Below are positions 1,269 to 13,967 of a stretch of DNA of 13,967 nt, in pieces (positions within the stretch are counted from its first letter, which is position 1; the number at the start of each line of letters is the position of its first letter). The stretch is from Candidatus Nanohalobium sp. (GTDB lineage: Archaea > Nanohalarchaeota > Nanosalinia > Nanosalinales > Nanosalinaceae), in assembly GCA_042217555.1 (NCBI GenBank), contig JBDGSL010000017.1, positions 1 through 13,967 of the forward strand, given 5' to 3'. Under the pieces are notes generated by a model that ran no database searches, was not told the DNA's origin, and was given only the letters and a program-made list of their open reading frames with translations. The translations under genes were made by a program, and so were the position numbers.

Positions 1269-1850
1269 TCAAGCTACTTTTGTGGCTTGTTCATATGGGT
1301 CTATTTCTTCTAGTCCCATGTCCATTAGTTCGTCGTACGCTTCTCCGCCGATTTCGTACCATTCATCGCCATCCTTACTCCAGTTTGAGCCCTTTAAATC
1401 CCAGTCTGACGAGGTGATGACTTTTCTTCCTGCCATCATTCCTGGTTCCGGGCTGTTGTATACTATCATATGCCACCAGTGTTCGTCCTCATGATATCCT
1501 TGATTATCTCGCCAAGATTCAACGTCAGCTCCAGACATCCCTTCCAGATTAGCGTTTTCAAGTTCTAGAGCTCCCAGAGGATGTGTATGGAAGTATCTAT
1601 GGCTTGTATCGCCTTGTTCTGAGAATTCGTTTAATATTTCATCAGCTTCTTTTGTTCCTGTTACTTCTCCTGTATCTCCTACTTCTAAAGTTATGTAGCC
1701 TGCAATTCCAGCATCTGAATTTGGATCCTGCTCGTAGTCGGTAACTATAAAGGCTCCAAGAACTTCTTTATCTAGTCTTGTTAGATCTGCTAGACCTCCA
1801 TCATGCTCATTATACATTAGGTTTGGAGGCATCACAATGTCGCCAGGCAT
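1269..1850 (-). CDS. JAB/MPN (JAMM)-like metalloprotein
   Basis: It has an N-terminal 'KEVLGAFI' Glu and 'FHTHP...MSGAD', fitting E...HxH...SxxD, although the spacer is longer than canonical. The protein is a very acidic 193 aa. Confidence 0.55.
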   Translation of the reverse strand: MPGDIVMPPNLMYNEHDGGLADLTRLDKEVLGAFIVTDYEQDPNSDAGIAGYITLEVGDTGEVTGTKEADEILNEFSEQGDTSHRYFHTHPLGALELENANLEGMSGADVESWRDNQGYHEDEHWWHMIVYNSPEPGMMAGRKVITSSDWDLKGSNWSKDGDEWYEIGGEAYDELMDMGLEEIDPYEQATKVA

Positions 1851-1908
1851 AGTTATTACTTACCAATCACTACATAAAAAAGTTTTCGAATATTTGAATG
1901 TTTGACGG

Positions 1909-2175
1909 TCAAGATTTTTGCCGTCGACCTATATACCAATCTATCTCACCTACGTCATTGGCTAAAATTTTAGCAATCGCTCGGTGGTTTCCATCATTAA
2001 TCATTCCCCAGGTATCGGCTATTTCCCAGTCCTTTTCTCCGTGGACTTTATTCATTCTATCTCTCTTACTGGCTCTATTTCCAGGAGTTACGACCCATGG
2101 CAGAAATTCGTTCAGGACTTCAGGAACTTCCTTTAACGCCATTATGTATTTCACACTCTGATATTCATCAGGATC
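1909..2175 (-). pseudogene. 5'-truncated ParB/Srx-like domain protein fragment
   Basis: It carries the 'MINDGNHRAIA' (DGxHR) motif. The frame continues upstream of the GTG at 2154 (DPDEYQSVKY) into compositionally different sequence in front of the integrase, with no convincing start. Confidence 0.4.
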
Positions 2176-2204
2176 TGCGTCCGGGATCAGTGACGGATGT
2201 GACG

Positions 2205-3806
2205 ATGCGGATGGGGGTTAGAAAGTCGGTTGCACAACAACCGACCGACACGCATCGTGAAACAACAACCAAGACAAACTATGACAGTTCCGACATACAC
2301 AGAAGACTCGAAACCCTCAAAAACAAAGACTGCGTCTCAAAACGCAACGCACAACTTCTCGACGAGTTCGTAGAAGAACTCCAGGCACGAGACGGCACAA
2401 GCGACAGCAGAACAGTCTGGTACATCTCCAAATTCTCCACAATCCTACAACAATACCTCCGAAAAGACAGGTTCGAGAAAGACACACGAATCGACAGAAC
2501 ACTGGAACACGACCAACTGGACGAACTCACCAAATCCGACCTACTAGCAGTAATCGGCGTAATGAAGAAACTGCCGATGAACGACCTCTGGACAAAAGGA
2601 GTAGAAACCAAAGAAGGAATCCTCACACCGTTACAAGCTGCAGAAAGACTTACAGAGGAAGCATTCAACAGCCTGGAAAAGATCTACTCCGACTCCGTGA
2701 AGTACAAGGACTACGAACCCAGCGAAGAAATCTTCAACCAACTCCAAGACTACTCCGCAGCAAAAGTAGAAGACGGCGACTACAAGCTTACAGAGTTCGG
2801 AGAGAACATCAAAGATGTTAGCGAACCTGAGAAGTATGTGGAGAAAACCATGAACGGGTTCAAGACCGCCTTCAAGATGTTTCTCAAACTCCGCCACCCC
2901 TTGAAGATGGACAGACCTCGGAGAGTCAAGAGAATCATCCAGTCAGGAATTCTCAAAGGCAACACAGACGCAGACAGAAAAACCGAACTCCGCCTGTTCA
3001 GCCCCGAACAAATCTGGAAAATGGTAGAAGCAGCCAGAAACCCCAGAGACGCCCTACTGCCAATCCTATGTCTTGATGCAGGAGCCAGGAACAAGGAAAT
3101 CAGGAAAGTAAAGCTCTCTGACATAGAAAAGCAGTCCGAGACATGGATAGTAGAGTTCATCGACTCCAAAAACGGAAAACCGCCAAGAGACCTACCTTTG
3201 ACACACTGCATCGAACAGCTACGGGCATGGCTCGAAAGCCATCCACGAAAAGAAGAACCTGACGCACCACTGTTCGTAACACTTAACGACAAAGGGTACG
3301 GAGAGAAAGGCAGTGAACTCAAGAAAGAGAACATCAACAAGATCCTGAAACGGTTAGCCAAAAGAGCAGACGTAGTAGACAACCCAGAAACTGTCAAAGT
3401 CTACGATTTCAGGCACTCATCCGCCACATTCAGAGGCACAGAACAGGACTGGGGAGTCTCCAGGATGATGTACTGGTATGCGTGGAAAAAGCCAGACCGG
3501 GCGAAAACCTACTGCCACGAGGACAACAAACGGATGACAGAAGCCATCCTGAAAGACAAAGGAATCAAAACCGAGGATAACACCAACAACTCGATGCAGA
3601 TGCAGGAATGCCCACGCTGCGAGGAAAAACGACCAGCCAACGCCGAATACTGTCCAAAATGCTCTCTGCCTTTGGACAGCGAGACAGCCATGAGAGACGC
3701 AGACCTTAAGAAAGCAGCCAAAATCCTCGTAGACATCAAACTCGACGAAAAAATCGAAGACGAAGAACTCAAAGGACGTCTACAACGAGTCAGAGAAGGA
3801 ATCTAA
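2205..3806 (+). CDS. Tyrosine recombinase/integrase with C-terminal zinc ribbon
   Basis: Catalytic residues are R (GARNKE), K (DSKNG), YDFRH (the HxxR box with Y), W (YAWK) and Y (KTYCH). It also has 'PDAPLFV' and CPRC...CPKC, typical of archaeal integrases. The start is uncertain (ATG 2205 or 2211; the ORF is open from 2097). Confidence 0.9.
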   Translation: MRMGVRKSVAQQPTDTHRETTTKTNYDSSDIHRRLETLKNKDCVSKRNAQLLDEFVEELQARDGTSDSRTVWYISKFSTILQQYLRKDRFEKDTRIDRTLEHDQLDELTKSDLLAVIGVMKKLPMNDLWTKGVETKEGILTPLQAAERLTEEAFNSLEKIYSDSVKYKDYEPSEEIFNQLQDYSAAKVEDGDYKLTEFGENIKDVSEPEKYVEKTMNGFKTAFKMFLKLRHPLKMDRPRRVKRIIQSGILKGNTDADRKTELRLFSPEQIWKMVEAARNPRDALLPILCLDAGARNKEIRKVKLSDIEKQSETWIVEFIDSKNGKPPRDLPLTHCIEQLRAWLESHPRKEEPDAPLFVTLNDKGYGEKGSELKKENINKILKRLAKRADVVDNPETVKVYDFRHSSATFRGTEQDWGVSRMMYWYAWKKPDRAKTYCHEDNKRMTEAILKDKGIKTEDNTNNSMQMQECPRCEEKRPANAEYCPKCSLPLDSETAMRDADLKKAAKILVDIKLDEKIEDEELKGRLQRVREGI

Positions 3807-3871
3807 AACATTTCCTTCTTATCTTCTATTCTTACACCGAACTTTAATTCAAGAAAAGCAAATTAGCTACC

Positions 3872-4867
3872 ATGAACCCTGAAGAAATGGTTCAGAAAAT
3901 CCTTGAGAAAGAGTTTCCTGATAGAGAACCTGTAGATACTTACCCGGCCGAAGGAGGTTTTGCACACGACACATTCTTCATAGATTTCAAGGACGAGAGC
4001 TTTGTACTGAAGATAAACGGTTTAGCTGACTTAGTCGAAAAACAGAACCAAGACTGGAATGCTCGGTTTGAAACTGAACCTTATGTACTGGATTTAATCC
4101 GCCAAAAAACCGATATTCCCGTTCCCGAATGTGTCGCAAGAGATACTTCCGAAACCACTATACCTGAATACTACCACATACTGCGAAAGATGGAAGGCTT
4201 TGCTCCGGCAGAAAGCTCTTCTAACCCTGCCTTCAGAAATTTAAGAGAGAACAAAAAGGAACAGATTTTACAGAAACTGGGAAATAATATCGCAAAACTC
4301 CATCAGATACAGTTTGAGGATTTTGGCGAGTTGAGAGTTAAAAATAAAGAATTGACAGTTGAGAAGGCTGAAGGATGGTCAGAATTATTTCATGAAATGA
4401 TATTATTCTGGATAAACCAATTGGAAGGCGGCAAGTTCGATGATCTAATACCTGAAATCAAGAATGCTGTTGAAAGAAACCTGGATTTGATAGAAAATGT
4501 AGGAGCACCTGTCTTGGTTCACAGAGAGGTAGACACTAAGAACATACTTGTTGAAGATGGCGAGCTTGCAGCGATTCTGGACTGGGAGGCATGTGTGGCG
4601 GGACACGGAGAATTTGACCTTGTGACAACAGAAGGAAGAATGATAGCACACAGCTTCAGCACAGACAGTATCTGGGAAAAATACAGGAAAGAACTGTATA
4701 AAGGCTATGAGAATATAAGGAATTTGGAAGTTGGCTGGGAGGAGAGAAGACAATTATATCTCCTATATCCTATGACTCTGGAAATGGCTTTCCATTCTGA
4801 CTCAGGAGCAAACAGCGAAGAAACAATCAGAAAAAGAACGGGAAAGATTCTCGAAGAATTACTTTAA
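3872..4867 (+). CDS. APH/choline-kinase-family phosphotransferase (atypical HRE catalytic loop)
   Basis: Motifs FVLKI, IPVPE, LAKLH-type helix, LVHREVDTKNIL and ILDWE. Confidence 0.85.
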   Translation: MNPEEMVQKILEKEFPDREPVDTYPAEGGFAHDTFFIDFKDESFVLKINGLADLVEKQNQDWNARFETEPYVLDLIRQKTDIPVPECVARDTSETTIPEYYHILRKMEGFAPAESSSNPAFRNLRENKKEQILQKLGNNIAKLHQIQFEDFGELRVKNKELTVEKAEGWSELFHEMILFWINQLEGGKFDDLIPEIKNAVERNLDLIENVGAPVLVHREVDTKNILVEDGELAAILDWEACVAGHGEFDLVTTEGRMIAHSFSTDSIWEKYRKELYKGYENIRNLEVGWEERRQLYLLYPMTLEMAFHSDSGANSEETIRKRTGKILEELL

Positions 4868-4890
4868 GTCTCAATTGAAAATTAACAGTT

Positions 4891-5907
4891 ATGCCTGATG
4901 AGAAAGTAGCTAGAGAGATAGTCAAGCATGAGTTTGATGATCCTGTAATTAAGAATGTCAGAGATGTTTCAGGTCTTTCTCACGCCGTCTTTATTGTAGA
5001 ATTAGAGGATAGAGAGGTTGCTGTCGCCTACTGTTATGAAGAAGTCCTGGAACATCGTTTCGAAGTGGCAGCCGAAACCACGGAACTTGTCGATGAAAAG
5101 ACAGATGTACCCGTTCCAGAAGTAATTTCTGTTGACCTGAGCAAAGAAAATATTCCGCATATGTACTATGTAATGGAGAAAATTGAAGGAGAAGCGATGA
5201 GTGTTTACGGCGGAACACCAGATTTCAGAAGATTCAGTAGAGAAAAGAAAGCAAAAATATTAGAACAAGTAGGAAAACACCTAGGAGAAATCCATAGCGA
5301 AATCCAGTTTTCAAAACACGGAAACATAAGCTATGACCTGGAAAAGAAAGAACTAACGGTAGAAGAGTGTTCAGAATGGCCTGAAGCACTTAGAGAAATA
5401 CTCAACGAACAAATACAAGACATAAAAGATGGAAGATTCTCCGACCTCATACCACAAATACAGGAAATAATAGACGACTACATCCATCTCGTTGATAGAG
5501 AATTTCAGCCTGTCCTTGTACATCAAGACTGTCTGCCCCAAAACATTATGGCAGATGGAGACCAAGTTACAGCTATAGTAGACTGGGAAAGAGCAGCTTC
5601 AGGACACAAGGAATACGACTTCTTCAAGACCGAAAGAGGATTTATTAGAACCGCATTTGAAACTGAAGAAGTTAAAGAACAATTGAGAAAACATCTTTAC
5701 AGAGGCTATCAGGAAACTAATAGTCTGAAAGAAGGCTGGGAAGAGAGAAGAGAATTTTACAACTTCATCTACTACATCAACAAAATTTGGGCTTATCCCG
5801 GAATAGTAGAAGACTGGAATTCAGAAGACAAGGACGAATTTGAAGGACAAATAAGAGAAGAATTTGAAGACATAGTTGAAAGAACCAAAGAAAGCCTAAA
5901 AACCTGA
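4891..5907 (+). CDS. APH/choline-kinase-family phosphotransferase
   Basis: Motifs VPVPEV, VMEKIEG, LVHQDCLPQNIM and IVDWE. It is a tandem paralog of the upstream gene. Confidence 0.9.
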   Translation: MPDEKVAREIVKHEFDDPVIKNVRDVSGLSHAVFIVELEDREVAVAYCYEEVLEHRFEVAAETTELVDEKTDVPVPEVISVDLSKENIPHMYYVMEKIEGEAMSVYGGTPDFRRFSREKKAKILEQVGKHLGEIHSEIQFSKHGNISYDLEKKELTVEECSEWPEALREILNEQIQDIKDGRFSDLIPQIQEIIDDYIHLVDREFQPVLVHQDCLPQNIMADGDQVTAIVDWERAASGHKEYDFFKTERGFIRTAFETEEVKEQLRKHLYRGYQETNSLKEGWEERREFYNFIYYINKIWAYPGIVEDWNSEDKDEFEGQIREEFEDIVERTKESLKT

Positions 5908-5909
5908 TT

Positions 5910-7412
5910 TTACAGCTCTTTTATCATTACTTTAACGCCTATATCCCTACCTTCTATGTCTTGCTTTCTCTCCTCTGTGACTTCATAACCATTTTTCCTG
6001 TAGAAATCAATTGCTTCCAGAGACGCCAGAGTCTCCATTTCCTCCAAGTTTTCTTCTCTGGCTTTCTCCTCTAGTTTCTGCATCAATTTTGAACCAATCC
6101 CTGATCCTTTCAGGTCTGGATCGACAAATATTCCTGCAACCGTACCGCTCTCCTTCTGAAAACCAGCTACGCCTACAATCTCACCGTCCTTTACAGCCAC
6201 AAAATAAACATATCTATCCTTTTCAGCAAACTCCAGGTTCATATCAGGGATTACTTCTTCCAAATGCCTTTGCTGTTCCTTAGAATAATACTCCAGCTCA
6301 ATATCCTCGACTGCTGCCCGAATTAAATGCCGTATATTGTCTTTATCTTTGTATCTTCTGATTTTCATTAATTCCCCCCCCCGGTCGTAGCTTATTTCCT
6401 TTTCAGCCGCCTTTTTTAGATTCTTCTGACGTTTTCTGAATAGTTGCCTGAAGAATTCTTCCTCTTCTTTTACTTCTTTTTGGCTTAGCCCTTCTCTTTC
6501 AGTCCAATTTTCGAATTTCTTCATACCTTCAAAGTTTTGAATCATGCTGTAATAGGTTATTCTCTGTTTCCATCGACCTTTAAACTCTCTCTGATTTCTA
6601 TATCCTCTGAAGAATTCTCTTTCCAGTTCTTGATTAATGCTCTCTGTCTCAAACCAGCGGTAAATCATCGAAACTCTGGAATTGGCGAGATCCCATTCGG
6701 GCGGCCCTGAGATAGCTTTCTCCCAGTCAATTACAGCATTTATATGATCATCTTTGACTATGAGATTATTTGGAGAGACATCCCAGTGGATGCAACAAAA
6801 GTAGTCGTTTGTATCGGCGAGATCTATATGCTGATCTACGAACTGTCGAGCATCCTCCACCATATCACTGAAACGAGTGTTTTCAAGTTCTTCGAGGCGT
6901 TCAAACGCCATTTGTTTCAAGTATTCTTTCCACTCGTGCTCCTCTATCTCTATTTCGCCATTTTTGTAAATTATTTCGCCGGCAGAGTCGAACTCGACCT
7001 TTTTATGGAGTTCTCCTAGATATTCTCCTGCTTCTTTCACGATATTTCTTTTAATTTCTCTTGGCAGATATTTGAACCTGTTCTGTGGATCATATCCTTC
7101 AATTTTTTCGGCTATGTAGAATAGATAAGGTACTTTTTTCTTTGAAAAGTCCGATTTCAGTATTTTCTGTGTAGGAATATCTGTCTTCTGGTTGACAAGT
7201 TCCACGAGCTTTTCCTCCTTCATGAACCGCCTCTCGTATTCCGTACTGGTATTGGTGCAAAGGTAAACAATTAGGCTATCTCCTGATTCAAGTTTAACTT
7301 CAAGAACATCTCTTGCGAAACCTGAATCATATTTCCTAAAGGATTTTACATCATAAGATGCCTCCAACGAACTCACAGTATTCTGAACCATTTGATCTGA
7401 AATTTCGGCCAT
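5910..7412 (-). CDS. APH-family phosphotransferase joined in frame to a GNAT acetyltransferase (possibly two genes)
   Basis: The kinase part has IHWDVSPNNLI and VIDWE. The GNAT part starts at ATG 6368 (MKIRRY) and has FVDPDLKGSGIGSKL and AIDFYRKNGY. A G9 run at 6374-6382 sits at the junction. Confidence 0.85.
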   Translation of the reverse strand: MAEISDQMVQNTVSSLEASYDVKSFRKYDSGFARDVLEVKLESGDSLIVYLCTNTSTEYERRFMKEEKLVELVNQKTDIPTQKILKSDFSKKKVPYLFYIAEKIEGYDPQNRFKYLPREIKRNIVKEAGEYLGELHKKVEFDSAGEIIYKNGEIEIEEHEWKEYLKQMAFERLEELENTRFSDMVEDARQFVDQHIDLADTNDYFCCIHWDVSPNNLIVKDDHINAVIDWEKAISGPPEWDLANSRVSMIYRWFETESINQELEREFFRGYRNQREFKGRWKQRITYYSMIQNFEGMKKFENWTEREGLSQKEVKEEEEFFRQLFRKRQKNLKKAAEKEISYDRGGELMKIRRYKDKDNIRHLIRAAVEDIELEYYSKEQQRHLEEVIPDMNLEFAEKDRYVYFVAVKDGEIVGVAGFQKESGTVAGIFVDPDLKGSGIGSKLMQKLEEKAREENLEEMETLASLEAIDFYRKNGYEVTEERKQDIEGRDIGVKVMIKEL

Positions 7413-7418
7413 AAAACA

Positions 7419-8210
7419 TCACATCTCTAAAGTTTTGAAGTCGCTCCAGACTTCGTAACCTCTCTTTTCGGCTGCCTCTTCCAGTTCTTCTGTGTGCATC
7501 TGGTTTAGGTGTTCGCTGATGTTGACGAGAACTGTTCTATCGGCGTCTACCTGTTTGATATTCTGTTCTATTTCTTCTGTGTATCCGTGGCTTTCTGCTC
7601 CGAACAGTTGTCCTTCTATCAAAGCAATATCAGCATTCTCGTAACAGTCTTCGTCTTCGGGAATATTGCGGACATCAGGCACATAAACAACCTTCTTGCC
7701 CTCTTTCCGGATCACATAACCCTGTGTTTCTTCTCCGTGTTCGACCTTGAAAGCCTCTACAGTGACATCGCCTACTTCGACTGTCTCTCCCGAACTCATA
7801 GTTTGGAAGTTGATGTTTTCGTTTTCGGCTATGTGGCTTTGCTTTTCCTGCAGGTAGTTCTGGGTTGTCTGGTTCCCGTAAACTGTTATTTTTCTTCCAT
7901 GCCAGCCGTTATAGTCGAAATCCTCAGGATTCAAAACGTGCTCTTCTATAGCGATATGATTAAGTTCACGGATTCCTGAAAAATGATCGAAATGGTAGTG
8001 TGTAAAAAAGAACCCATCAACATCAAAAACTTCGACTTCATGCAGCTGCTCCTTGATCTCAGGACTCATCTCGAAAACCAGAGTAACATCATCCGTCTCA
8101 ACCAGTAGACTTGGTCGTCTTCTCTTCTCCGATTCCTGACAGTATTCACAATTACACATAGGAACAGGCATGCCGATCGCATCGCCAGAACCAAGCAGAG
8201 TCACTTTCAT
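7419..8210 (-). CDS. PhnP-like metallo-beta-lactamase-fold phosphodiesterase
   Basis: N-terminus LGSGDAIGMPVPMCNCEYC and THYHFDH (HxHxDH). ATG 8210 overlaps the upstream stop (ATGA), with GGAGG just upstream. Confidence 0.85.
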   Translation of the reverse strand: MKVTLLGSGDAIGMPVPMCNCEYCQESEKRRRPSLLVETDDVTLVFEMSPEIKEQLHEVEVFDVDGFFFTHYHFDHFSGIRELNHIAIEEHVLNPEDFDYNGWHGRKITVYGNQTTQNYLQEKQSHIAENENINFQTMSSGETVEVGDVTVEAFKVEHGEETQGYVIRKEGKKVVYVPDVRNIPEDEDCYENADIALIEGQLFGAESHGYTEEIEQNIKQVDADRTVLVNISEHLNQMHTEELEEAAEKRGYEVWSDFKTLEM

Positions 8211-8956
8211 TTTTGAACCTCCCAAACCGATCTTACAGGTTTTTCAAGCTCTTCTCTATCAAAGCCCTGATAAACACTCCATTCAAAGAATTCTACCAAC
8301 TTAAGAAGTAGTTCAAACTCTCTTTTGGAGACCAGCTTAGTTTTGAACTCATTCTCCCAAACAATCTCATCCTGAGAGTTGTATAATTCGTTCTTTACTG
8401 TTCTTATCTGTTCTACTTCGCTTTCCCAGTTAACCTCAACTACTCTTTCGTATTCCTCACCTTCAATCTCTACTTTTTCGGTTGATCGTGACCCTTCTCC
8501 TGTTCCTTCCGCTACTTTCTCGAAGTCAGGTATATAGAAATCTACTATCAGCCTTCCGTCTTCTTTCAAATGTTCTTTACAGTTCTCCAGTGTTGATATC
8601 TGTTCTTCGATGGTTAGGTTGTGCATGAAGGTATTGAAAGGTATTATAATCAAGTCAAATTTTTTATCATAGTTAAAGTCCTCCATCTTAGCCTGCCTTA
8701 CTTTCGTATCTAAGCCTCTTTCACCAGCCTTCTCCCGCAATTTTTCCAACATTTCTTCTGATATATCGAATCCATAAATATCGGCTCCATTCTCTAAAGC
8801 ATCAAGGTAAATTCTTCCAGTTCCACAGCCGATCTCCAATACTCTTCCATCAGTCTGTCTTATTTCATCTAGATAGAATTGAACATCTTCTCCGTCTTCT
8901 GAGTAAATATAATCGTAGTATTCTGCCCATCCTTTGAACTGATCTTCATCAACCAT
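8207..8956 (-). CDS. Class I SAM-dependent methyltransferase
   Basis: Motif I VLEIGCGTGR, plus GFDISEEML, FDLII and LKEDGRLIVD. Confidence 0.9.
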   Translation of the reverse strand: MVDEDQFKGWAEYYDYIYSEDGEDVQFYLDEIRQTDGRVLEIGCGTGRIYLDALENGADIYGFDISEEMLEKLREKAGERGLDTKVRQAKMEDFNYDKKFDLIIIPFNTFMHNLTIEEQISTLENCKEHLKEDGRLIVDFYIPDFEKVAEGTGEGSRSTEKVEIEGEEYERVVEVNWESEVEQIRTVKNELYNSQDEIVWENEFKTKLVSKREFELLLKLVEFFEWSVYQGFDREELEKPVRSVWEVQK

Positions 8957-8992
8957 AGAAGAAGCTTTAATCTGTTTGAATAAAAATTCGTT

Positions 8993-9466
8993 CTAATCCC
9001 ACTCCACTGGTTCGTATGCTTCTGGGTAGAGTTCCTGGATCTGGAATTTCTGGATTTGAGGGAACAAATTCCATTCCCCACGTTCCTTTCTGACGAAGTT
9101 GCTGACCAGTACTGTTGTGTCTTTGTCTCCGAACTCGTTTATTGCGTGTCTACAAGCTCCACAAGGCATAGTTCCCTTGTGATCTTTATCTGGTACTGGC
9201 CCCGCTACCAGTACCGCTTCTATCTTTGAATATTCGGTTTCTTCGTACTGTAGCTGGTTTATAGCGTGTCTCTCGGCACAGAAATTGAAACTTGGCTGGC
9301 TCGACTCAAACGGTTTTCCTTCATAGATTTCTCCGCTTTCGGATAATACGAAGGCGTAGATAACATCGTATAGATCGTTTTCCCAGCGATTCTTGGCGTG
9401 CTCCTCGATTCTTTCTCTGGCATACTCTATTAGCTCTTCTTCGTGTTCTGTTAGTTGGTCACTCAT
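8993..9466 (-). CDS. Cytidine deaminase family protein (three-Cys Zn site, as in tetrameric CDA/blasticidin-S deaminase)
   Basis: Zn-binding motifs FCAERHAI and PCGACRH. Confidence 0.85.
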   Translation of the reverse strand: MSDQLTEHEEELIEYARERIEEHAKNRWENDLYDVIYAFVLSESGEIYEGKPFESSQPSFNFCAERHAINQLQYEETEYSKIEAVLVAGPVPDKDHKGTMPCGACRHAINEFGDKDTTVLVSNFVRKERGEWNLFPQIQKFQIQELYPEAYEPVEWD

Positions 9467-9998
9467 AGTACTCGTCCTCTAAAATACTCATCCAGGTGAC
9501 GTTTTTCCATTCTCCGTCTACATACTTGTAGTCTCTTTCTGTGCCTTCTTCTTGGAATCCTGCTTTCTCCATTACCCGTCTTGACGCAGGATTACCTTCG
9601 AGATAACCGCCCCTGATCTTGTGACGATTTAAAGTCTCGAAAGTGTAGGTTACTACCATTTTCAGGCTTTTTGTTCCGATTCCTTGTCCGTGGTATTCTG
9701 GGTGTACAAAGTATCTTATGTGGCTACGTCCATAATCACTTTCCAAACCACCAAGAAAGATATGGCCGACCTTCTCTCCTTGATACTCTATGAGGAAGTG
9801 GACGCTTTCATCATCTGAACTAAATTCTTCAATATACTCTTCTTCTTGAGATACATTAATCGGTCTTGGAGCTCTACCAAGGTATGCTCTGACTTCTCCG
9901 TGGCTTATTGTTTCTGCGATAAACTCTGCGTCTTCCATTTCTACTGGTCGGAGAACTACATCATCCCATTCCATAAACTTACTTGTTGTTTCTGTCAC
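9459..9998 (-). CDS. RimJ/RimL-family GNAT N-acetyltransferase
   Basis: Motifs LRPVEMED, HPEYHGQGIGT and NPASRRVMEKAGF. The likely GTG start at 9998 overlaps the upstream TGA and has AGGTGA 6 nt upstream. Confidence 0.88.
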   Translation of the reverse strand: MTETTSKFMEWDDVVLRPVEMEDAEFIAETISHGEVRAYLGRAPRPINVSQEEEYIEEFSSDDESVHFLIEYQGEKVGHIFLGGLESDYGRSHIRYFVHPEYHGQGIGTKSLKMVVTYTFETLNRHKIRGGYLEGNPASRRVMEKAGFQEEGTERDYKYVDGEWKNVTWMSILEDEYYE

Positions 9999-10525
9999 TG
10001 CCAATCACCTTCTACAACGCCGTAGTAAACGACATCTTTGTATTCTCCCTGTTTGAAGGTGTGGTCTTTGAATACTCCTTCTTTGTCGAATCCAAGTTTT
10101 TCCCAGACACTTTGTGACGCCTTGTTACCTTGATAGGCTCGTGCGTATACTTTGTGGTAGTTTAGCTGGTTGAAGGCGTAATCTGTAATTAATTGTGACG
10201 CTTCTGTGCCGTATCCGTTTCCGTGGTGGTCTGGGTGTATCCAGATACCGATTTCGGCAAGTTTTTCTGCGTTATCGCCTTGAGGCATCAGACTGATTAT
10301 ACCCATTTTTTCTTCATCTCTGGATATCATCAAGTGTACTGTGTCTTCTCCGCAGATTTGTTCTTCAAAGAACTCTTCTTCGTTCTCAAGGTTTTGAGGT
10401 TTTCTGTTACCCATATATACACGGACTTCAGGGTGATTTACTCCATCTCGGAGAAATTCTATGTCTTCCTCTTCGATTGTCCTTAAGTTGATTTTTTCGC
10501 CTTTAAGAAATACTGTTCCAGCCAT
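9995..10525 (-). CDS. RimJ/RimL-family GNAT N-acetyltransferase
   Basis: Motifs LRTIEEED, EIGIWIHPDHHGNGYGTEA and NKASQSVWEKLGF. Confidence 0.9.
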   Translation of the reverse strand: MAGTVFLKGEKINLRTIEEEDIEFLRDGVNHPEVRVYMGNRKPQNLENEEEFFEEQICGEDTVHLMISRDEEKMGIISLMPQGDNAEKLAEIGIWIHPDHHGNGYGTEASQLITDYAFNQLNYHKVYARAYQGNKASQSVWEKLGFDKEGVFKDHTFKQGEYKDVVYYGVVEGDWQ

Positions 10526-10580
10526 AGAGAGGATTTTCTTTCAGGCTGTTATAATTTTAAGGCAATTGCTTCTATATCTG

Positions 10581-10593
10581 GAAAAGATTTAAG
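10581..10593 (+). promoter_or_regulatory. Archaeal BRE/TATA-like promoter for the proS leader
   Basis: GAAAAGA-TTTAAG, with the TATA-like part 25-30 nt before ATG 10618. This spacing is expected for a leaderless archaeal transcript. Confidence 0.55.
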
Positions 10594-10617
10594 AAACTCA
10601 TCACATCTCTGATAGTT

Positions 10618-10647
10618 ATGTCTGGTGACTACGTTCCTCGGCAGTAG
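10618..10647 (+). CDS. Putative leader peptide uORF1 (MSGDYVPRQ)
   Basis: ATG TCT GGT GAC TAC GTT CCT CGG CAG TAG. It sits at the predicted transcript start and shares a motif with uORF2. Confidence 0.6.
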   Translation: MSGDYVPRQ

Positions 10648-10699
10648 AATATTTGAGAGTTCTTTTAGTCGCCAGAATACCGAATTTTCCGTGATTTCT

Positions 10700-10756
10700 A
10701 TGAACAAAGTTTCAACTACAGGTGGATACGTTCCACCACGACAACAGATTCGATAA
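10700..10756 (+). CDS. Putative leader peptide uORF2 (MNKVSTTGGYVPPRQQIR)
   Basis: It has tandem CCA CCA Pro codons at 10733-10738 and shares G-x-Y-V-P..R-Q with uORF1. Confidence 0.6.
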   Translation: MNKVSTTGGYVPPRQQIR

Positions 10757-10862
10757 CTATCGAAACTTTGGAGAAGTTTCTGGTGTTGCAGAAACTCGAA
10801 GAGTTTCGAACCACTCAAAATCCTTTAACAACACTTTTTTCCTCAACTTCTGGTGAACGCTG

Positions 10863-12083
10863 GTGAGACGCAGTAATCTCTTCGTAACCAGTTCCAAAGA
10901 GACAGAAGCCGACACGCACTGTAAAAGTGCCGAACTTGCGGTACAAGCAGGGCTTGTCCACAACTACGGCTCTGGAACCTTTGGATTCTCCCATCTCGGT
11001 CAGAGAGTTCTGAATAACATAGAATCAGTGATCAGAGAAGAAATGGACGAAATCGGGCAAGAAGTGAAGATGAACCTTCTCCAGACCAGTGAACTGTGGG
11101 AGAAGTCAGGGCGTTGGAAGAACTTTGAAGGAGAAGAGTTCTTCAACTTCAAGAACAGAGACGACAAAGACTTCACCATCGCCGCAACACACGAAGAAGC
11201 ATCCGTAGAACTCACAAAGAAGTACATCCGAAGCTACAGGGATCTCGACCTAACGATCTACCAGATCGGCAGAAAGTTCAGAGACGACCACGCCAGAAAC
11301 GGTCTTTTGCGGACGAAAGAGTTCATTATGAAGGACGCCTATAGCTTCCACAAAGACAGAGAAGGGCTACAGGAGAAGTACCGTGAGTTCCTCAACGCCT
11401 ACCGAACTATCTTCGACAAGCTCGGACTTGAGTACTCTGTCGTTGCCACTGACAACGGCTCTATGGGAGGAAGTCAAAGCCACGAATTTATGGCCGAAGC
11501 AGAAATCGGAAGCGACACCTACCTGAAATCCGACAACTGTGAGTTCGGAACCAAGAATCTTGACACTGGAAACTGTGGCAACTGTGGTTCAGAGCTCCGT
11601 GAAGTGAACGGTATAGAGATCGGTCACTGTTTCAAACTTGGAACCCGATACAGCGAATCTATGGATCTAACCTTCGATACCGAAGAGGGAGATACAGAGA
11701 ACGTGGTTATGGCCAGTTATGGGATCGGAGTAAGTCGATTGATTTCAGCGATCATAGAGCAGAATCACGATCAGAATGGCATCACTTGGAATGAAGAAGT
11801 GTCTGCTTTCAACTTTTCTGTGATTGCCGCAAGGCACGAAGAGGAAGTAACGGAGAAAGCAGAGAGCATCTATCAAGAGCTACAGGAGCAGGGAGTAGAC
11901 GTTCTGCTTTATGACGGTCAACTATCTACAGGCGAGCAGTTCAGGGAGTCTGATCTTCTCGGAGTCAACCGCAAAGTTATCGTGGGCAGTAATTTCCTTG
12001 AGAACGGAAAGATTGAGATAGAGTCCAGAAGCGGAGAAAAGAAGGAAGTTGAAGCAGGAGAAATGGTGGAAGAAATGAGCTAA
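10863..12083 (+). CDS. proS: Prolyl-tRNA synthetase, bacterial-type, short form without the INS editing domain; contains no proline
   Basis: Motifs include LWEKSGRW, THEE, motif 2 YQIGRKFRD...EFIMKDAYSF, MGGSQSHEF, GIEIGHCFKLG, motif 3 MASYGIGVSR and a class IIa anticodon-binding domain. It starts with GTG. Confidence 0.93.
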   Translation: MRRSNLFVTSSKETEADTHCKSAELAVQAGLVHNYGSGTFGFSHLGQRVLNNIESVIREEMDEIGQEVKMNLLQTSELWEKSGRWKNFEGEEFFNFKNRDDKDFTIAATHEEASVELTKKYIRSYRDLDLTIYQIGRKFRDDHARNGLLRTKEFIMKDAYSFHKDREGLQEKYREFLNAYRTIFDKLGLEYSVVATDNGSMGGSQSHEFMAEAEIGSDTYLKSDNCEFGTKNLDTGNCGNCGSELREVNGIEIGHCFKLGTRYSESMDLTFDTEEGDTENVVMASYGIGVSRLISAIIEQNHDQNGITWNEEVSAFNFSVIAARHEEEVTEKAESIYQELQEQGVDVLLYDGQLSTGEQFRESDLLGVNRKVIVGSNFLENGKIEIESRSGEKKEVEAGEMVEEMS

Positions 12084-12159
12084 CAACTTCTTTCTCCTAA
12101 TTTTTCGGTGGAATCGAAAACTCAAGAGTTTTCTTAATCCACACGAAATCTCCGATTTC

Positions 12160-12230
12160 GGCGGGATAGTGTAGCGGCATCATCGCACGTTCGGGACGTG
12201 CGGACGGCGGTTCGAATCCGCCTCCTGCCA
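12160..12230 (+). tRNA. tRNA-Pro(CGG)
   Basis: The cloverleaf has acceptor GGCGGGA/TCCTGCC, D-arm GTG/CAT, anticodon arm GCACG-TTCGGGA-CGTGC, T-arm GGCGG-TTCGAAT-CCGCC and discriminator A. It has no intron and no separately encoded CCA tail. Confidence 0.95.
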
Positions 12231-12322
12231 ATTGCATATACCTTAATTTTATAGAAATCCCGAAACTGCCAAAGCATTTCTGTGGAATAAATTCTAAAGT
12301 TTAGCTTACTGAAGGTTTGATT

Positions 12323-13084
12323 ATGGAAGAGAAAGCGAAGGAATGGTGGGAGGTAACAGCAGGCTATTTTCAAGATGAAGCAGATGTACCGATAGCCATC
12401 CATTATGGAACAGGTTCTCCTTTAGAGGACAAACTGGGATTAATAGAACAGGATTTAGAAGGCAAGAAAGTTCTGGAAATGGGCTGTGGTGCAGCTCAAG
12501 GAGGAATAGCATTTGCGAAGAAAGGTGCAAAAGTTACAGGAGTAGATATTTCAGAAGAACAACTGGAGATAGCCACAGAATTGATAGATGAACATGGAGT
12601 TGACATTGAACTACACCAGGGAGACATCAAAGACATGGAGACGATAGAATCAAGCTCTTATGATATAGTATACTCTGCATATGCTTTCCAATGGTTGAAA
12701 GATATTCAAGCAGTATTCTCGGAGGCTCATAGAGCATTAAAATCAGGCGGGATGTTCCTATTTAGTCTTCCACACCCCTTCTTCCAGTTTTTAGGAGGAG
12801 AAATTGAAACCCAACAACTTGATATTGAAGAACATTATCTGGATGCAGATGTATCAAAGACAGAGCAACTTGAGGAAGATGGAGAAGAATATGAAATGAT
12901 TATCTACAGGAGGACTGTAGGCGAACTTTTCAATAGCCTCAGGGAAGCAGGATTTCAGGTAGATAGAATTATCGAACCTGACCCGAGAGAAGCAGCAGGA
13001 GATGAAGGCGAACAATGGGTTGACCAAGACCTGCTTTCCAAAGTTCCATCCACTGTAATATTTAGAGCTTTCAAGGAGGAATGA
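12323..13084 (+). CDS. Class I SAM-dependent methyltransferase
   Basis: Motifs VLEMGCGAAQ, GVDISEEQL, YDIVYS and LKSGGMFLFSLPHP. Confidence 0.9.
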   Translation: MEEKAKEWWEVTAGYFQDEADVPIAIHYGTGSPLEDKLGLIEQDLEGKKVLEMGCGAAQGGIAFAKKGAKVTGVDISEEQLEIATELIDEHGVDIELHQGDIKDMETIESSSYDIVYSAYAFQWLKDIQAVFSEAHRALKSGGMFLFSLPHPFFQFLGGEIETQQLDIEEHYLDADVSKTEQLEEDGEEYEMIIYRRTVGELFNSLREAGFQVDRIIEPDPREAAGDEGEQWVDQDLLSKVPSTVIFRAFKEE

Positions 13085-13200
13085 GCCGGGTCCTGCCATA
13101 TTATTCATAAGTAAGCAAATCAATATACCGTAATATGGAAACCGAGTTTGAATCGGTAGGCGGTAAAGACGCCGACTTCAATCGGAAACAGGGTATCAGC

Positions 13201-13967
13201 CTACTCTCTTTCCTCTAAAAAGTAGTCGGAGACATCCTCTGTCTGACCTGCCTGAACCTTCCAGAGCTTCGCATAGATACCATCTTCTTCCAATAATTCA
13301 TCGTGACTACCTCTCTCAACAATCCTTCCATCATCCAAAACAATTATCTTGTCAGCATCCTTGATCGTAGACAACCTATGAGCTATCGCCAGAACCGTCC
13401 TATCCTGAATTAACTCTTCTATACCTTTCTGAATCTTGATCTCTGTCTCCGTGTCAACATCGCTTGTTGCTTCATCCAGTATCAGGATTTCAGGATCTTG
13501 AAGAATAGCTCTCGCAATACCGATCCTCTGCCTCTGACCTCCCGATAGTTTGACTCCTTCCTCTCCCACTTCGGAGTCATAGCCATCAGGCAGTTCTTGG
13601 ATAAATTCGTGTGCTTGAGCCTTTTTTGCCGCCTCAACAACCTCTTCTCTACTTGCGTCAGGAACAGCATACTCAATATTCTCCTCCACAGATTCAGGGA
13701 ACAAGACATTATCCTGACTAACATATCCTATAGAACTTCTCAAGCTCTTCAAGTTGACATCCTGAATATTTTGATCATCGATTCTGATCTCTCCTTCGTC
13801 TAACTCGTAGAACCGAAGCAAAATTTTGACTACCGTAGACTTTCCTGCTCCTGTAGGCCCAGCTAACGCCAAAGTCTCTTGAGGCTTAATCGTGAAGTTC
13901 AGGTCTTCAACCACAGGTTCCTCATCATATCCAAAGGTAACGGAATCGTATTCAACCTTGCCATCCG
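13201..13967 (-). CDS. ABC exporter (MdlB/MsbA-like), C-terminal ATPase domain; partial
   Basis: Walker A GPTGAGKST, Q-loop VSQD, signature LSGGQRQR, Walker B ILILDEAT and H-loop AHRLS. The frame stays open to the window edge (DGKVEYDSVTFGY). Confidence 0.93.
   Translation of the reverse strand, partial: DGKVEYDSVTFGYDEEPVVEDLNFTIKPQETLALAGPTGAGKSTVVKILLRFYELDEGEIRIDDQNIQDVNLKSLRSSIGYVSQDNVLFPESVEENIEYAVPDASREEVVEAAKKAQAHEFIQELPDGYDSEVGEEGVKLSGGQRQRIGIARAILQDPEILILDEATSDVDTETEIKIQKGIEELIQDRTVLAIAHRLSTIKDADKIIVLDDGRIVERGSHDELLEEDGIYAKLWKVQAGQTEDVSDYFLEERE

Follow-up and report, generated by a model that had tools for sequence, protein, structure and literature searches.

The proS2 locus and its proline-free product

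The stretch analysed here (the window) is the whole of a 13,967-nucleotide contig, C9 (JBDGSL010000017.1), of a Candidatus Nanohalobium assembly (GCA_042217555.1) that comprises 1.31 Mb in 88 contigs and is 94% complete. It carries a second, bacterial-type prolyl-tRNA synthetase (ProRS) gene, referred to here as proS2, preceded by a 245-nt leader with conserved open frames, and it is this leader, with its two short upstream open reading frames (uORFs) and its putative frameshift sites, that we describe. The features of the leader, including its Shine-Dalgarno (SD) elements, are as follows.

10588..10593, + strand: TATA-like box TTTAAG, 30 nt 5' of the uORF1 ATG; similar AT-rich boxes were seen by eye in 19 leaders
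10618..10647, + strand: uORF1, MSGDYVPRQ*, with Pro as codon 7; its ATG precedes the site by two codons in 18 of 19 leaders, by three in the other
10621..10631, + strand: 5' arm of stem A, covering the GGTG of site 1 (from covariation and resting folds)
10624..10639, + strand: predicted +1 shift site 1, consisting of GGTGA (internal, SD-like), 4 nt, GTT (P-site), CCT (Pro, A-site) and C (from the 42-site motif)
10634..10756, + strand: +1 frame from site 1, open, in frame with uORF2 and leading into site 2 (as at 21 of 21 junctions)
10666..10676, + strand: 3' arm of stem A
10691..10702, + strand: SD-like GTGAT and ATG of uORF2, conserved in the leader alignment; a possible second entry point
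10700..10756, + strand: uORF2, MNKVSTTGGYVPPRQQIR*, whose stop lies 106 nt before the proS2 start
10721..10737, + strand: predicted +1 shift site 2, consisting of GGTGG, 4 nt, GTT and CCA CCA, with hairpin B over it (from the 42-site motif and pairing in 19 leaders)
10731..10856, + strand: +1 frame from site 2, which by frame analysis ends at TGA 10854-10856, 6 nt before the proS2 GTG
10852..10856, + strand: SD of proS2, GGTGA, 6 nt 5' of the GTG start
10863..12083, + strand: proS2, encoding 406 amino acids with no editing insertion and zero prolines (TIGR00409, Pfam and proline count)

The likely 3' end of the 16S rRNA, which is complementary to GGTGA, was located on contig C56, and the spacing between GGTGA and ATG across the genome has its mode at 6 nt (19 of 56). 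Because the TATA-like box lies 30 nt before the uORF1 ATG, a spacing typical of archaeal promoters, the uORF1 transcript is predicted to be leaderless and to start at 10618.

ProS2 scored 422 bits against TIGR00409 (cut-off, 306.7) and fell below the cut-offs for PRK09194 and PRK12325, and this profile score assigns it to the bacterial-type (family II) ProRS enzymes. All 14 aligned proteins of the ProS2 group (398-410 residues) lack proline entirely; the 93 other ProRS homologs have 8-19 prolines in the aligned part. Among the 398 proteins of at least 300 amino acids in its own genome, the two ProS2 copies are the only ones without proline, an outcome with a chance of 6.6e-7 at the proteome's 3.4% proline, and the positions occupied by proline in a haloarchaeal homolog (L052), including one before the THEE/SHEE motif, are replaced in ProS2. 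As it contains no proline, ProS2 could be made during proline starvation, and its composition fits an enzyme built for production when tRNA-Pro is uncharged. A role in antibiotic resistance was considered on account of the neighbouring genes, but the proline-free sequence points to starvation instead. A 400-residue ProRS devoid of proline takes the avoidance by an enzyme of its own amino acid to an extreme.

We compared 70 genomes of the phylum. The archaeal-type ProRS was found in 57 of them, and in the Nanohalobium genome this housekeeping gene (TIGR00408) is on contig C27. The 406-aa bacterial type was present in 12 of the 70, nine of which also have the archaeal type; the other three, in which no archaeal type was found, are only 75-82% complete. 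A second copy of proS2, 96% identical, lies on contig C83 of the same assembly and possibly derives from another strain in the bin.

A recurrent motif links the reading frames of the leaders in +1

For the comparison of leaders we used the 24 loci of the proS2 group that retain their 5' end, and dropped five further group loci and one distant locus that do not. Removal of three duplicates left 21 distinct leaders, two of which show only their last site because of a gap or contig end, so that 19 are complete. A motif inside the gene upstream of one leader (L034) was excluded from the site count. These leaders are related to one another, and the counts below therefore overstate their independence.

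Every one of the 21 leaders contains the motif GGTG[AG]-N4-NT[TC]-CCN, with 42 sites in total. The first glycine codon of the site is GGT in 41 of the 42 (GGT makes up 24.5% of glycine codon usage in the genome), the exception being TGTG in L031, which keeps the GTG. The codon that would occupy the P site is NTT in 41 sites, across Val, Ile, Leu and Phe, with a single GTC in L006, and GGTG[AG] ends 4 nt from this codon in 41 sites, as compared with the 6-nt mode at start codons. The proline codon is CCT in 17 sites, CCA in 17 and CCG in eight. It is never CCC, which accounts for 11% of proline codons genome-wide, with the caution that the 42 sites are not independent; since the +1 neighbour of CCC would again be a proline codon, its absence fits a +1 shift.

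At all 21 junctions between consecutive sites, the 0 frame terminates short of the following site, while the +1 frame remains open and joins that site in its own frame. No junction (0 of 21) is linked by the -1 frame, and a -1 shift was rejected on this ground; transcriptional slippage was likewise rejected, as the sites contain no homopolymer run. Downstream of the last site, the 0 frame of the 21 leaders closes 39-249 nt short of proS2 and the -1 frame stops at scattered places, whereas the +1 frame runs for 20 to approximately 100 codons (60-300 nt) and ends in a TGA that overlaps the proS2 start in 19 of the 21 leaders, the exceptions being L048 (+11) and the window itself (-9). In the 19 complete leaders, the distinct inter-site spacings are 1 mod 3 in eight of eight cases and the distinct site-to-start distances are 0 mod 3 in 12 of 14. 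L033 and L048, the two leaders with three sites, lack an in-frame ATG in their middle module. Beyond the group, the 64 more distant ProRS loci that retain a 5' end all lack a uORF encoding G-x-x-[VI]-P; five of them have only a PP peptide.

The codon at the site follows the downstream gene

A scan of the Nanohalobium genome for the same layout gave seven matches with +1 links. These were both proS2 copies (Pro), glyS (TTT GGA), valS (TTT GTA) and three unrelated genes; the -1 control gave six matches, two of them the same proS2 sites. In relatives, a Thr codon stands at the site in 11 of 14 thrS loci, with NTT as the P-site codon in all 11 and the +1 stop 1-16 nt past the start, and one of the three thrS loci lacking a site had only 36 nt of upstream sequence. 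The identities of glyS, valS and thrS were assigned with NCBIfam, three of the thrS loci being checked. The codon after NTT thus follows the amino acid of the downstream gene.

A pattern search of the 70 genomes returned 29 matches in 23 genomes, versus six for a reversed control. Among them, L246 has a two-site Pro chain that ends on the start of a ProC/amino-acid-kinase gene and L239 has a two-site chain before a proC-like gene, across an assembly gap; several matches link to no gene. In three genomes of another family, single Pro sites also precede DUF34/NIF3 genes encoding 0-2 prolines (L234:664-1431, L235:1581-2345 and L236:671-1426), hinting that this protein may act in proline starvation.

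The best 80 matches of a genome scan for the same ProRS type included Halobacteria. Of 13 haloarchaeal-type loci, nine have a uORF ending in GTT CCG, with the +1 stop at +8 (eight loci) or +11 (one locus), and NTT as the P-site codon in all nine sites. This one-site version occurs in Halobacterium salinarum DSM 3754 (L159), Natronorubrum, Halocatena, Halopiger and Haladaptatus. The five haloarchaeal genomes that were checked all have the archaeal ProRS as well, and the full-length haloarchaeal enzymes of the bacterial type keep 13-17 prolines. Five of the nine haloarchaeal sites have a 9-bp hairpin with three compensatory pairs, which ends 4 nt before the P-site codon, the place where GGTG[AG] ends in the group of the window.

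A model of serial frameshifting at hungry proline codons

Taking together the frames, the motif, the codon swap, the proline-free enzyme and the covariation of stem A described below, we propose, with a probability of roughly 0.8, that the leader is a two-step sensor of charged tRNA-Pro, in which tandem +1 frameshifts of the prfB kind at hungry proline codons are coupled to proS2 by termination and reinitiation. Those five features are seen directly in the sequences, from which translation of the uORFs, the shift itself, its trigger, the reinitiation and a role for the stems are inferred. In this model, a ribosome would start at the predicted leaderless ATG at 10618. When charged tRNA-Pro is plentiful, it would read Pro7 and stop at 10645, and a ribosome in uORF2 would likewise stop approximately 100 nt short of proS2, a distance too great for reinitiation. 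Under shortage of charged tRNA-Pro, the ribosome would pause with a proline codon in its A site, and the P-site tRNA on GUU would re-pair one base further on (UUC), helped by the internal SD GGUG[AG], which is tightly spaced at 4 nt from the P-site codon versus 6 nt at starts. The shifted ribosome would then continue in the +1 frame, which is that of uORF2, into site 2, where a second shift would place it in the frame ending at the proS2 start and allow it to reinitiate there. Two or three such sites in series would make the response steep. The SD and ATG of uORF2 itself may offer a one-shift route gated by site 1.

The distances involved are consistent with this scheme. According to PMC10666635, reinitiation in Haloferax declines by 40-60% at spacings of 13-14 nt and is almost abolished at 22-23 nt. 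This decay fits an OFF state for the 0-frame stops (39-249 nt) and an ON state for the stop/start overlap. In addition, stem A at site 1 and hairpin B at site 2 probably keep the GGUG out of reach of free 30S subunits; because GGTG is both an SD and the source of a GTG in the +1 frame, the stems may stop free subunits from bypassing the sensor.

Several observations weigh against the proposal. Translation and shifting are here predictions from sequence, and three of the seven +1 matches in the genome-wide scan are unrelated genes. Only four of the 14 synthetase loci examined in the Nanohalobium genome have a site (most of those without one were named from motifs and not by family scan), and among housekeeping proS loci a single Pro site occurs in just five of 30, two of which have poorly placed +1 stops (-15 and +35). 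The re-pairing of GUU to UUC involves a first-position mismatch, the L006 site is GTC, and in full SD register the spacing is looser than the 3 nt of prfB. The conserved SD and ATG of uORF2 could bypass site 1, and a restart at the +1-frame GTG of GGTG, which none of the 19 leaders lacks, could produce identical frames. Finally, the copy in the window is an exception: it has a +1 frame that stops 6 nt too soon and a -1 frame that reaches the overlap, so that this copy alone cannot separate +1 from -1. By eye, the window differs from a close relative (L038) in the following feature.

10835..10840, + strand: run of six T, one T more than in L038

This extra T, possibly an assembly slip, puts the final stop 6 nt before the GTG instead of on the start overlap, and it also brings the -1 frame from site 2 to the overlap. 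A gap of 6 nt should still couple, perhaps less well, because the falls in reinitiation reported for Haloferax are at 13-14 and 22-23 nt.

A possible restart at the GTG of the site

The main rival to frameshifting is a restart, in which a stalled ribosome would lose its short peptide and begin again at the GTG within GGTG, giving the same sensor with no frameshift. Each of the 19 leaders has this GTG in the +1 frame, at a distance of 8 nt on the 5' side of the P-site codon; in 17 of them no other +1-frame start codon stands up to and including the site, and the sole non-GGT site (TGTG in L031) retains it. However, the GTG of site 1 has no SD before it, and among haloarchaeal leaders L149 has no ATG, GTG or TTG in the +1 frame before its site and four others have such a start elsewhere, inside or before the hairpin. 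Moreover, a restart leaves unexplained both the NTT codon, kept across four amino acids, and the absence of CCC. We therefore regard this explanation as unlikely.

Stem A, hairpin B and a proposed refolding of the leader

An earlier annotation made from the letters of this stretch (the sequence-only reading) had proposed that the leader is a switch-like RNA with alternative terminator/antiterminator or SD-sequestering folds coupled to the position of the ribosome. All of the segments that it listed are where it placed them and are able to pair in the way it described. Its stem between 10621-10631 and 10666-10676, here stem A, was borne out by comparison of homologous leaders, being both conserved and covarying. 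In 17 aligned leaders (L035 and L050, near-identical to the window in this region, were left out), 87.7% of cells were paired and five of 11 pairs had changed on both sides; the covariation score was reached by none of 500 shuffles, and slid controls were paired at 23-58%. Cognate arm pairs also beat swapped ones (p 5e-5, not corrected for kinship). For the second stem it had drawn, GGTGGA/TCCACC at 10721-10737 (hairpin B), pairing can be upheld at the last site in 19 of 19 leaders, with five to six of six pairs possible, but the 5' arm is almost invariant, and thus compensatory change does not add to the case. The whole strand from 10600 to 10880 folds no better than shuffled sequences (z -1.02; 31 of 200 shuffles were as good).

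A switch of this kind would work by a stall at proline that frees 10666-10676, with refolding that opens or closes the start of proS2 or uORF2 and with the frames being incidental. The covariation of stem A and the pairability of hairpin B are in its favour, and in both the window leader and its C83 paralog the freed strand can pair with the proS2 SD. Such pairing would nevertheless close proS2 in starvation, which is the wrong sign, and it has no cognate advantage: between the 10666-10676 strand and the proS2 ribosome binding site, cognate pairing was at -8.1 kcal/mol versus -7.5 kcal/mol when swapped (permutation p 0.18, 14 leaders). An anti-SD action of the stem A 3' arm, plausible by eye, was rejected on this p value together with those for site 2 (0.17) and the uORF2 start (0.57). 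In silico folds constrained by a ribosome footprint opened neither the proS2 nor the uORF2 start consistently in the 19 leaders, in which a stalled ribosome freeing a sequestered SD or start by alternative pairing, as in ermC, was accordingly not found. The mod-3 spacings and the 300-nt open +1 frames ending on a start codon would also go unexplained. We consider that refolding is a doubtful account of the leader. The feature exists and is conserved, while the RNA switch put forward for it is not supported. What survives of that proposal is its more general suggestion of a regulatory element tied to ribosomes in which the proline codons of the uORFs matter, which the conserved frames and motif support; the two +1 links ending at the proS2 start, the proline-free enzyme and the codon swap had escaped it.

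The insert with dispersed palindromes and the T run

The remaining pairings of the sequence-only reading, comprising four competing stems (10760-10809) and GTGTTG, all fall within a stretch of approximately 54 nt.

10758..10811, + strand: insert with two GAAACT/AGTTTC palindromes, 54 nt (18 codons), absent from the C83 paralog, stop-free in +1 and frame-preserving

The pattern GAAACT-N2-8-AGTTTC has 22 copies in the genome, the most of 120 permutations of its arms (median 0); 18 of the 22 lie outside long ORFs, often with further conserved flanks. The palindrome in the window (10762-10807) would appear to be a dispersed element of the repetitive extragenic palindrome (REP) type or a protein-binding site, and the competing stems turned out to be the dispersed genomic repeat that the sequence-only reading had itself named as a refutation. 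The same insert is present in the proC leader L246 of another genus, with identical arms, different loops and a T6 run, and by eye unrelated hairpins occupy the position of the insert in several other leaders. On these comparisons the insert is dispensable, although it may have a modulating role.

These findings also bear on attenuation at the level of transcription, whereby ribosome-free RNA past the uORF stops would be cut or terminated at U-rich tracts and protected by +1 ribosomes. Polarity of the aCPSF1/FttA type is the archaeal termination route that would serve it, pyrimidine-rich tracts do precede the SD, and T6 is found in the window and in L246, with T5 in L038. In the 19 proS2 leaders, however, a T run of at least five occurs in only two (T6 in the window and T5 in L038), GTGTTG together with the T6 run occurs in the window alone, and no conserved intrinsic terminator hairpin with a U-tract before the gene was found, so that the terminator/antiterminator idea has to be given up along with the stems on which it drew. 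Attenuation would, furthermore, need no overlap of stop and start codons. We think this mechanism improbable as an explanation of its own; it could add to frameshifting. That GGxVP acts as an arrest peptide in the nascent chain and senses a signal other than the supply of tRNA-Pro is hardly credible, since, although G-[GDE]-x-[VI]-P recurs in every module, the near-constant GGT of the first glycine indicates a constraint on the RNA and the last residue switches to Thr, Gly or Val with the downstream synthetase.

Relation to known regulatory systems

Short uORFs with cognate codons report the supply of charged tRNA in leader-peptide attenuators of the trp, his and pheST type and in Salmonella mgtL. 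An auxiliary synthetase, Streptomyces trpRS1, is reportedly an attenuator target, and leaderless polycysteine small ORFs of mycobacteria are said, in a preprint, to be leaders of the attenuator type. The proS2 leader resembles these in having a short uORF with a cognate codon upstream of a gene for biosynthesis or for a synthetase (both uORFs have Pro; thrS, glyS and valS are preceded by Thr, Gly and Val), but it has one cognate codon per module instead of a run and no conserved terminator/antiterminator pair, and its predicted output is a change of frame and not of fold. T-boxes control synthetase genes by tRNA charging, and GGTGG resembles the T-box bulge; here, in contrast, the "specifier" codon lies in a translated-looking frame immediately after GGTGG, in a leader with conserved open frames. 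A T-box riboswitch was rejected, as an Rfam scan of the window (E<=1) returned only the tRNA and one chance match over it, with no leader family and no T-box. To our knowledge, attenuators and T-boxes are bacterial solutions for tuning synthetases to the supply of charged tRNA, and how archaea achieve this is largely open.

The closest parallel is prfB, in which, according to the available part of PMC5009743, an SD 3 nt from CUU_U stimulates a +1 shift at a slow codon. Both systems have an internal SD just 5' of an NUU shift codon (at 41 of our 42 sites, this SD is close to the P-site codon) and a slow A-site codon, and in both a shortage of the product's function would trigger its synthesis. 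The P-site codon can re-pair at +1 (NUU followed by N), GUU being a weaker slip codon than CUU. The leaders differ from prfB in that the A site holds not UGA but a sense codon specifying the amino acid that the enzyme charges, in that the host is an archaeon, in that sites are chained two to three times, and in that the shifted frame ends on a start codon and is not fused to the protein; neither UGA in the A site nor two frames fused in one protein was found. The leader most likely works like prfB and belongs to neither the prfB type nor any attenuator family tested. In the same part of that review, a ketolide-induced frameshift in the ermCL leader ORF is described as sending ribosomes into the spacer and turning on ermC, and frameshifting in pheL is judged incidental (PMC5009743). 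The likeness to ermCL lies in a leader-ORF frameshift that would send ribosomes into a spacer and activate the downstream gene; ermCL answers a drug and acts by unfolding mRNA, whereas in the leaders described here the trigger codon varies with the synthetase and the shifted frame terminates at a start codon. The 4-nt NTGA stop/start overlap in which the final +1 frames end is given in the available text of PMC10666635 as the commonest coupled arrangement in archaea. The difference is that the upstream ORF would here be entered only conditionally, which would make a switch of the coupling.

The available part of the 2016 frameshifting review states that no example is known of hungry-codon frameshifting giving products useful in starvation (PMC5009743), and a 2021 review of archaeal recoding, in its available part, mentions only fucA1 and predicted Mg-chelatase cases (PMC8211752). 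Our search of the full-text literature, which had most subscription papers and supplements (possible lists of archaeal frameshifts or small ORFs) outside its coverage, returned no description of this leader, of a proline-free ProRS or of control of a synthetase by frameshifting. If the proposal is true, archaea would use +1 frameshifting at sense codons for regulation, serial shifts would act as a threshold device, and the sensor, whose codon can be swapped, would be a route of archaeal amino-acid sensing. In a wider sense, we think it rather probable that salt-loving archaea employ portable amino-acid sensors, unlike attenuators, T-boxes and riboswitches, in which a hungry cognate codon leads to a +1 frameshift, modules two to three deep set the threshold as an AND gate and the ribosome is passed on by the last frame to the gene, which here would be that of an emergency ProRS purged of every proline, including its motif prolines. 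The one-site version in cultured haloarchaea, including Halobacterium salinarum DSM 3754, makes the idea testable at once.

Genomic neighbourhood and minor observations

Directly 3' of proS2 lies a tRNA gene.

12160..12230, + strand: tRNA-Pro(CGG); a tRNA-Pro stands behind proS2 in eight of 25 group loci

These tRNAs have the anticodon CGG in three loci and TGG in five; the acceptor stem opens with G1-C72 and CCA is not encoded. The tRNA may be a dedicated partner of the enzyme. ARAGORN at default settings found only seven tRNA genes in the 94%-complete assembly, and the others may be unassembled or unusual; its low-threshold output was discarded as noise. The suggestion that a tRNA-His on contig C37 stands behind another synthetase with a leader of this kind did not hold up.

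The gene upstream of the leader is a different one in the C83 copy, and the proS2 cassette therefore looks mobile. The region 1269-13965 of the window is island-like, with a tyrosine recombinase, three phosphotransferase-like genes (one a GNAT fusion), an MBL hydrolase, two methyltransferases, a cytidine deaminase, two RimJ/L-type acetyltransferases and an ABC transporter. The fusion is a 500-aa ORF at 5913-7412 (- strand), in which a phosphotransferase-like domain is joined to a GNAT domain. Three genomes have proS2 and the housekeeping proS as near neighbours on one strand, proS2 being the upstream gene by 0.2-1.6 kb (G033:C1:240087-243645, G022:C8:8727-11584 and G034:C1:201647-205857). At L256 / L009 (G002:C47), a two-site leader is intact, with a final frame of 94 codons, but all that follows it of proS2 is a C-terminal remnant, the result of an internal deletion. 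The final +1 frame of approximately 100 codons in L033, L049 and L051 is acidic like a real protein and has internal ATGs, and may be an independently made small protein. Close relatives of the Nanohalobium genome were found in brine metagenomes, and the proteins are acidic.

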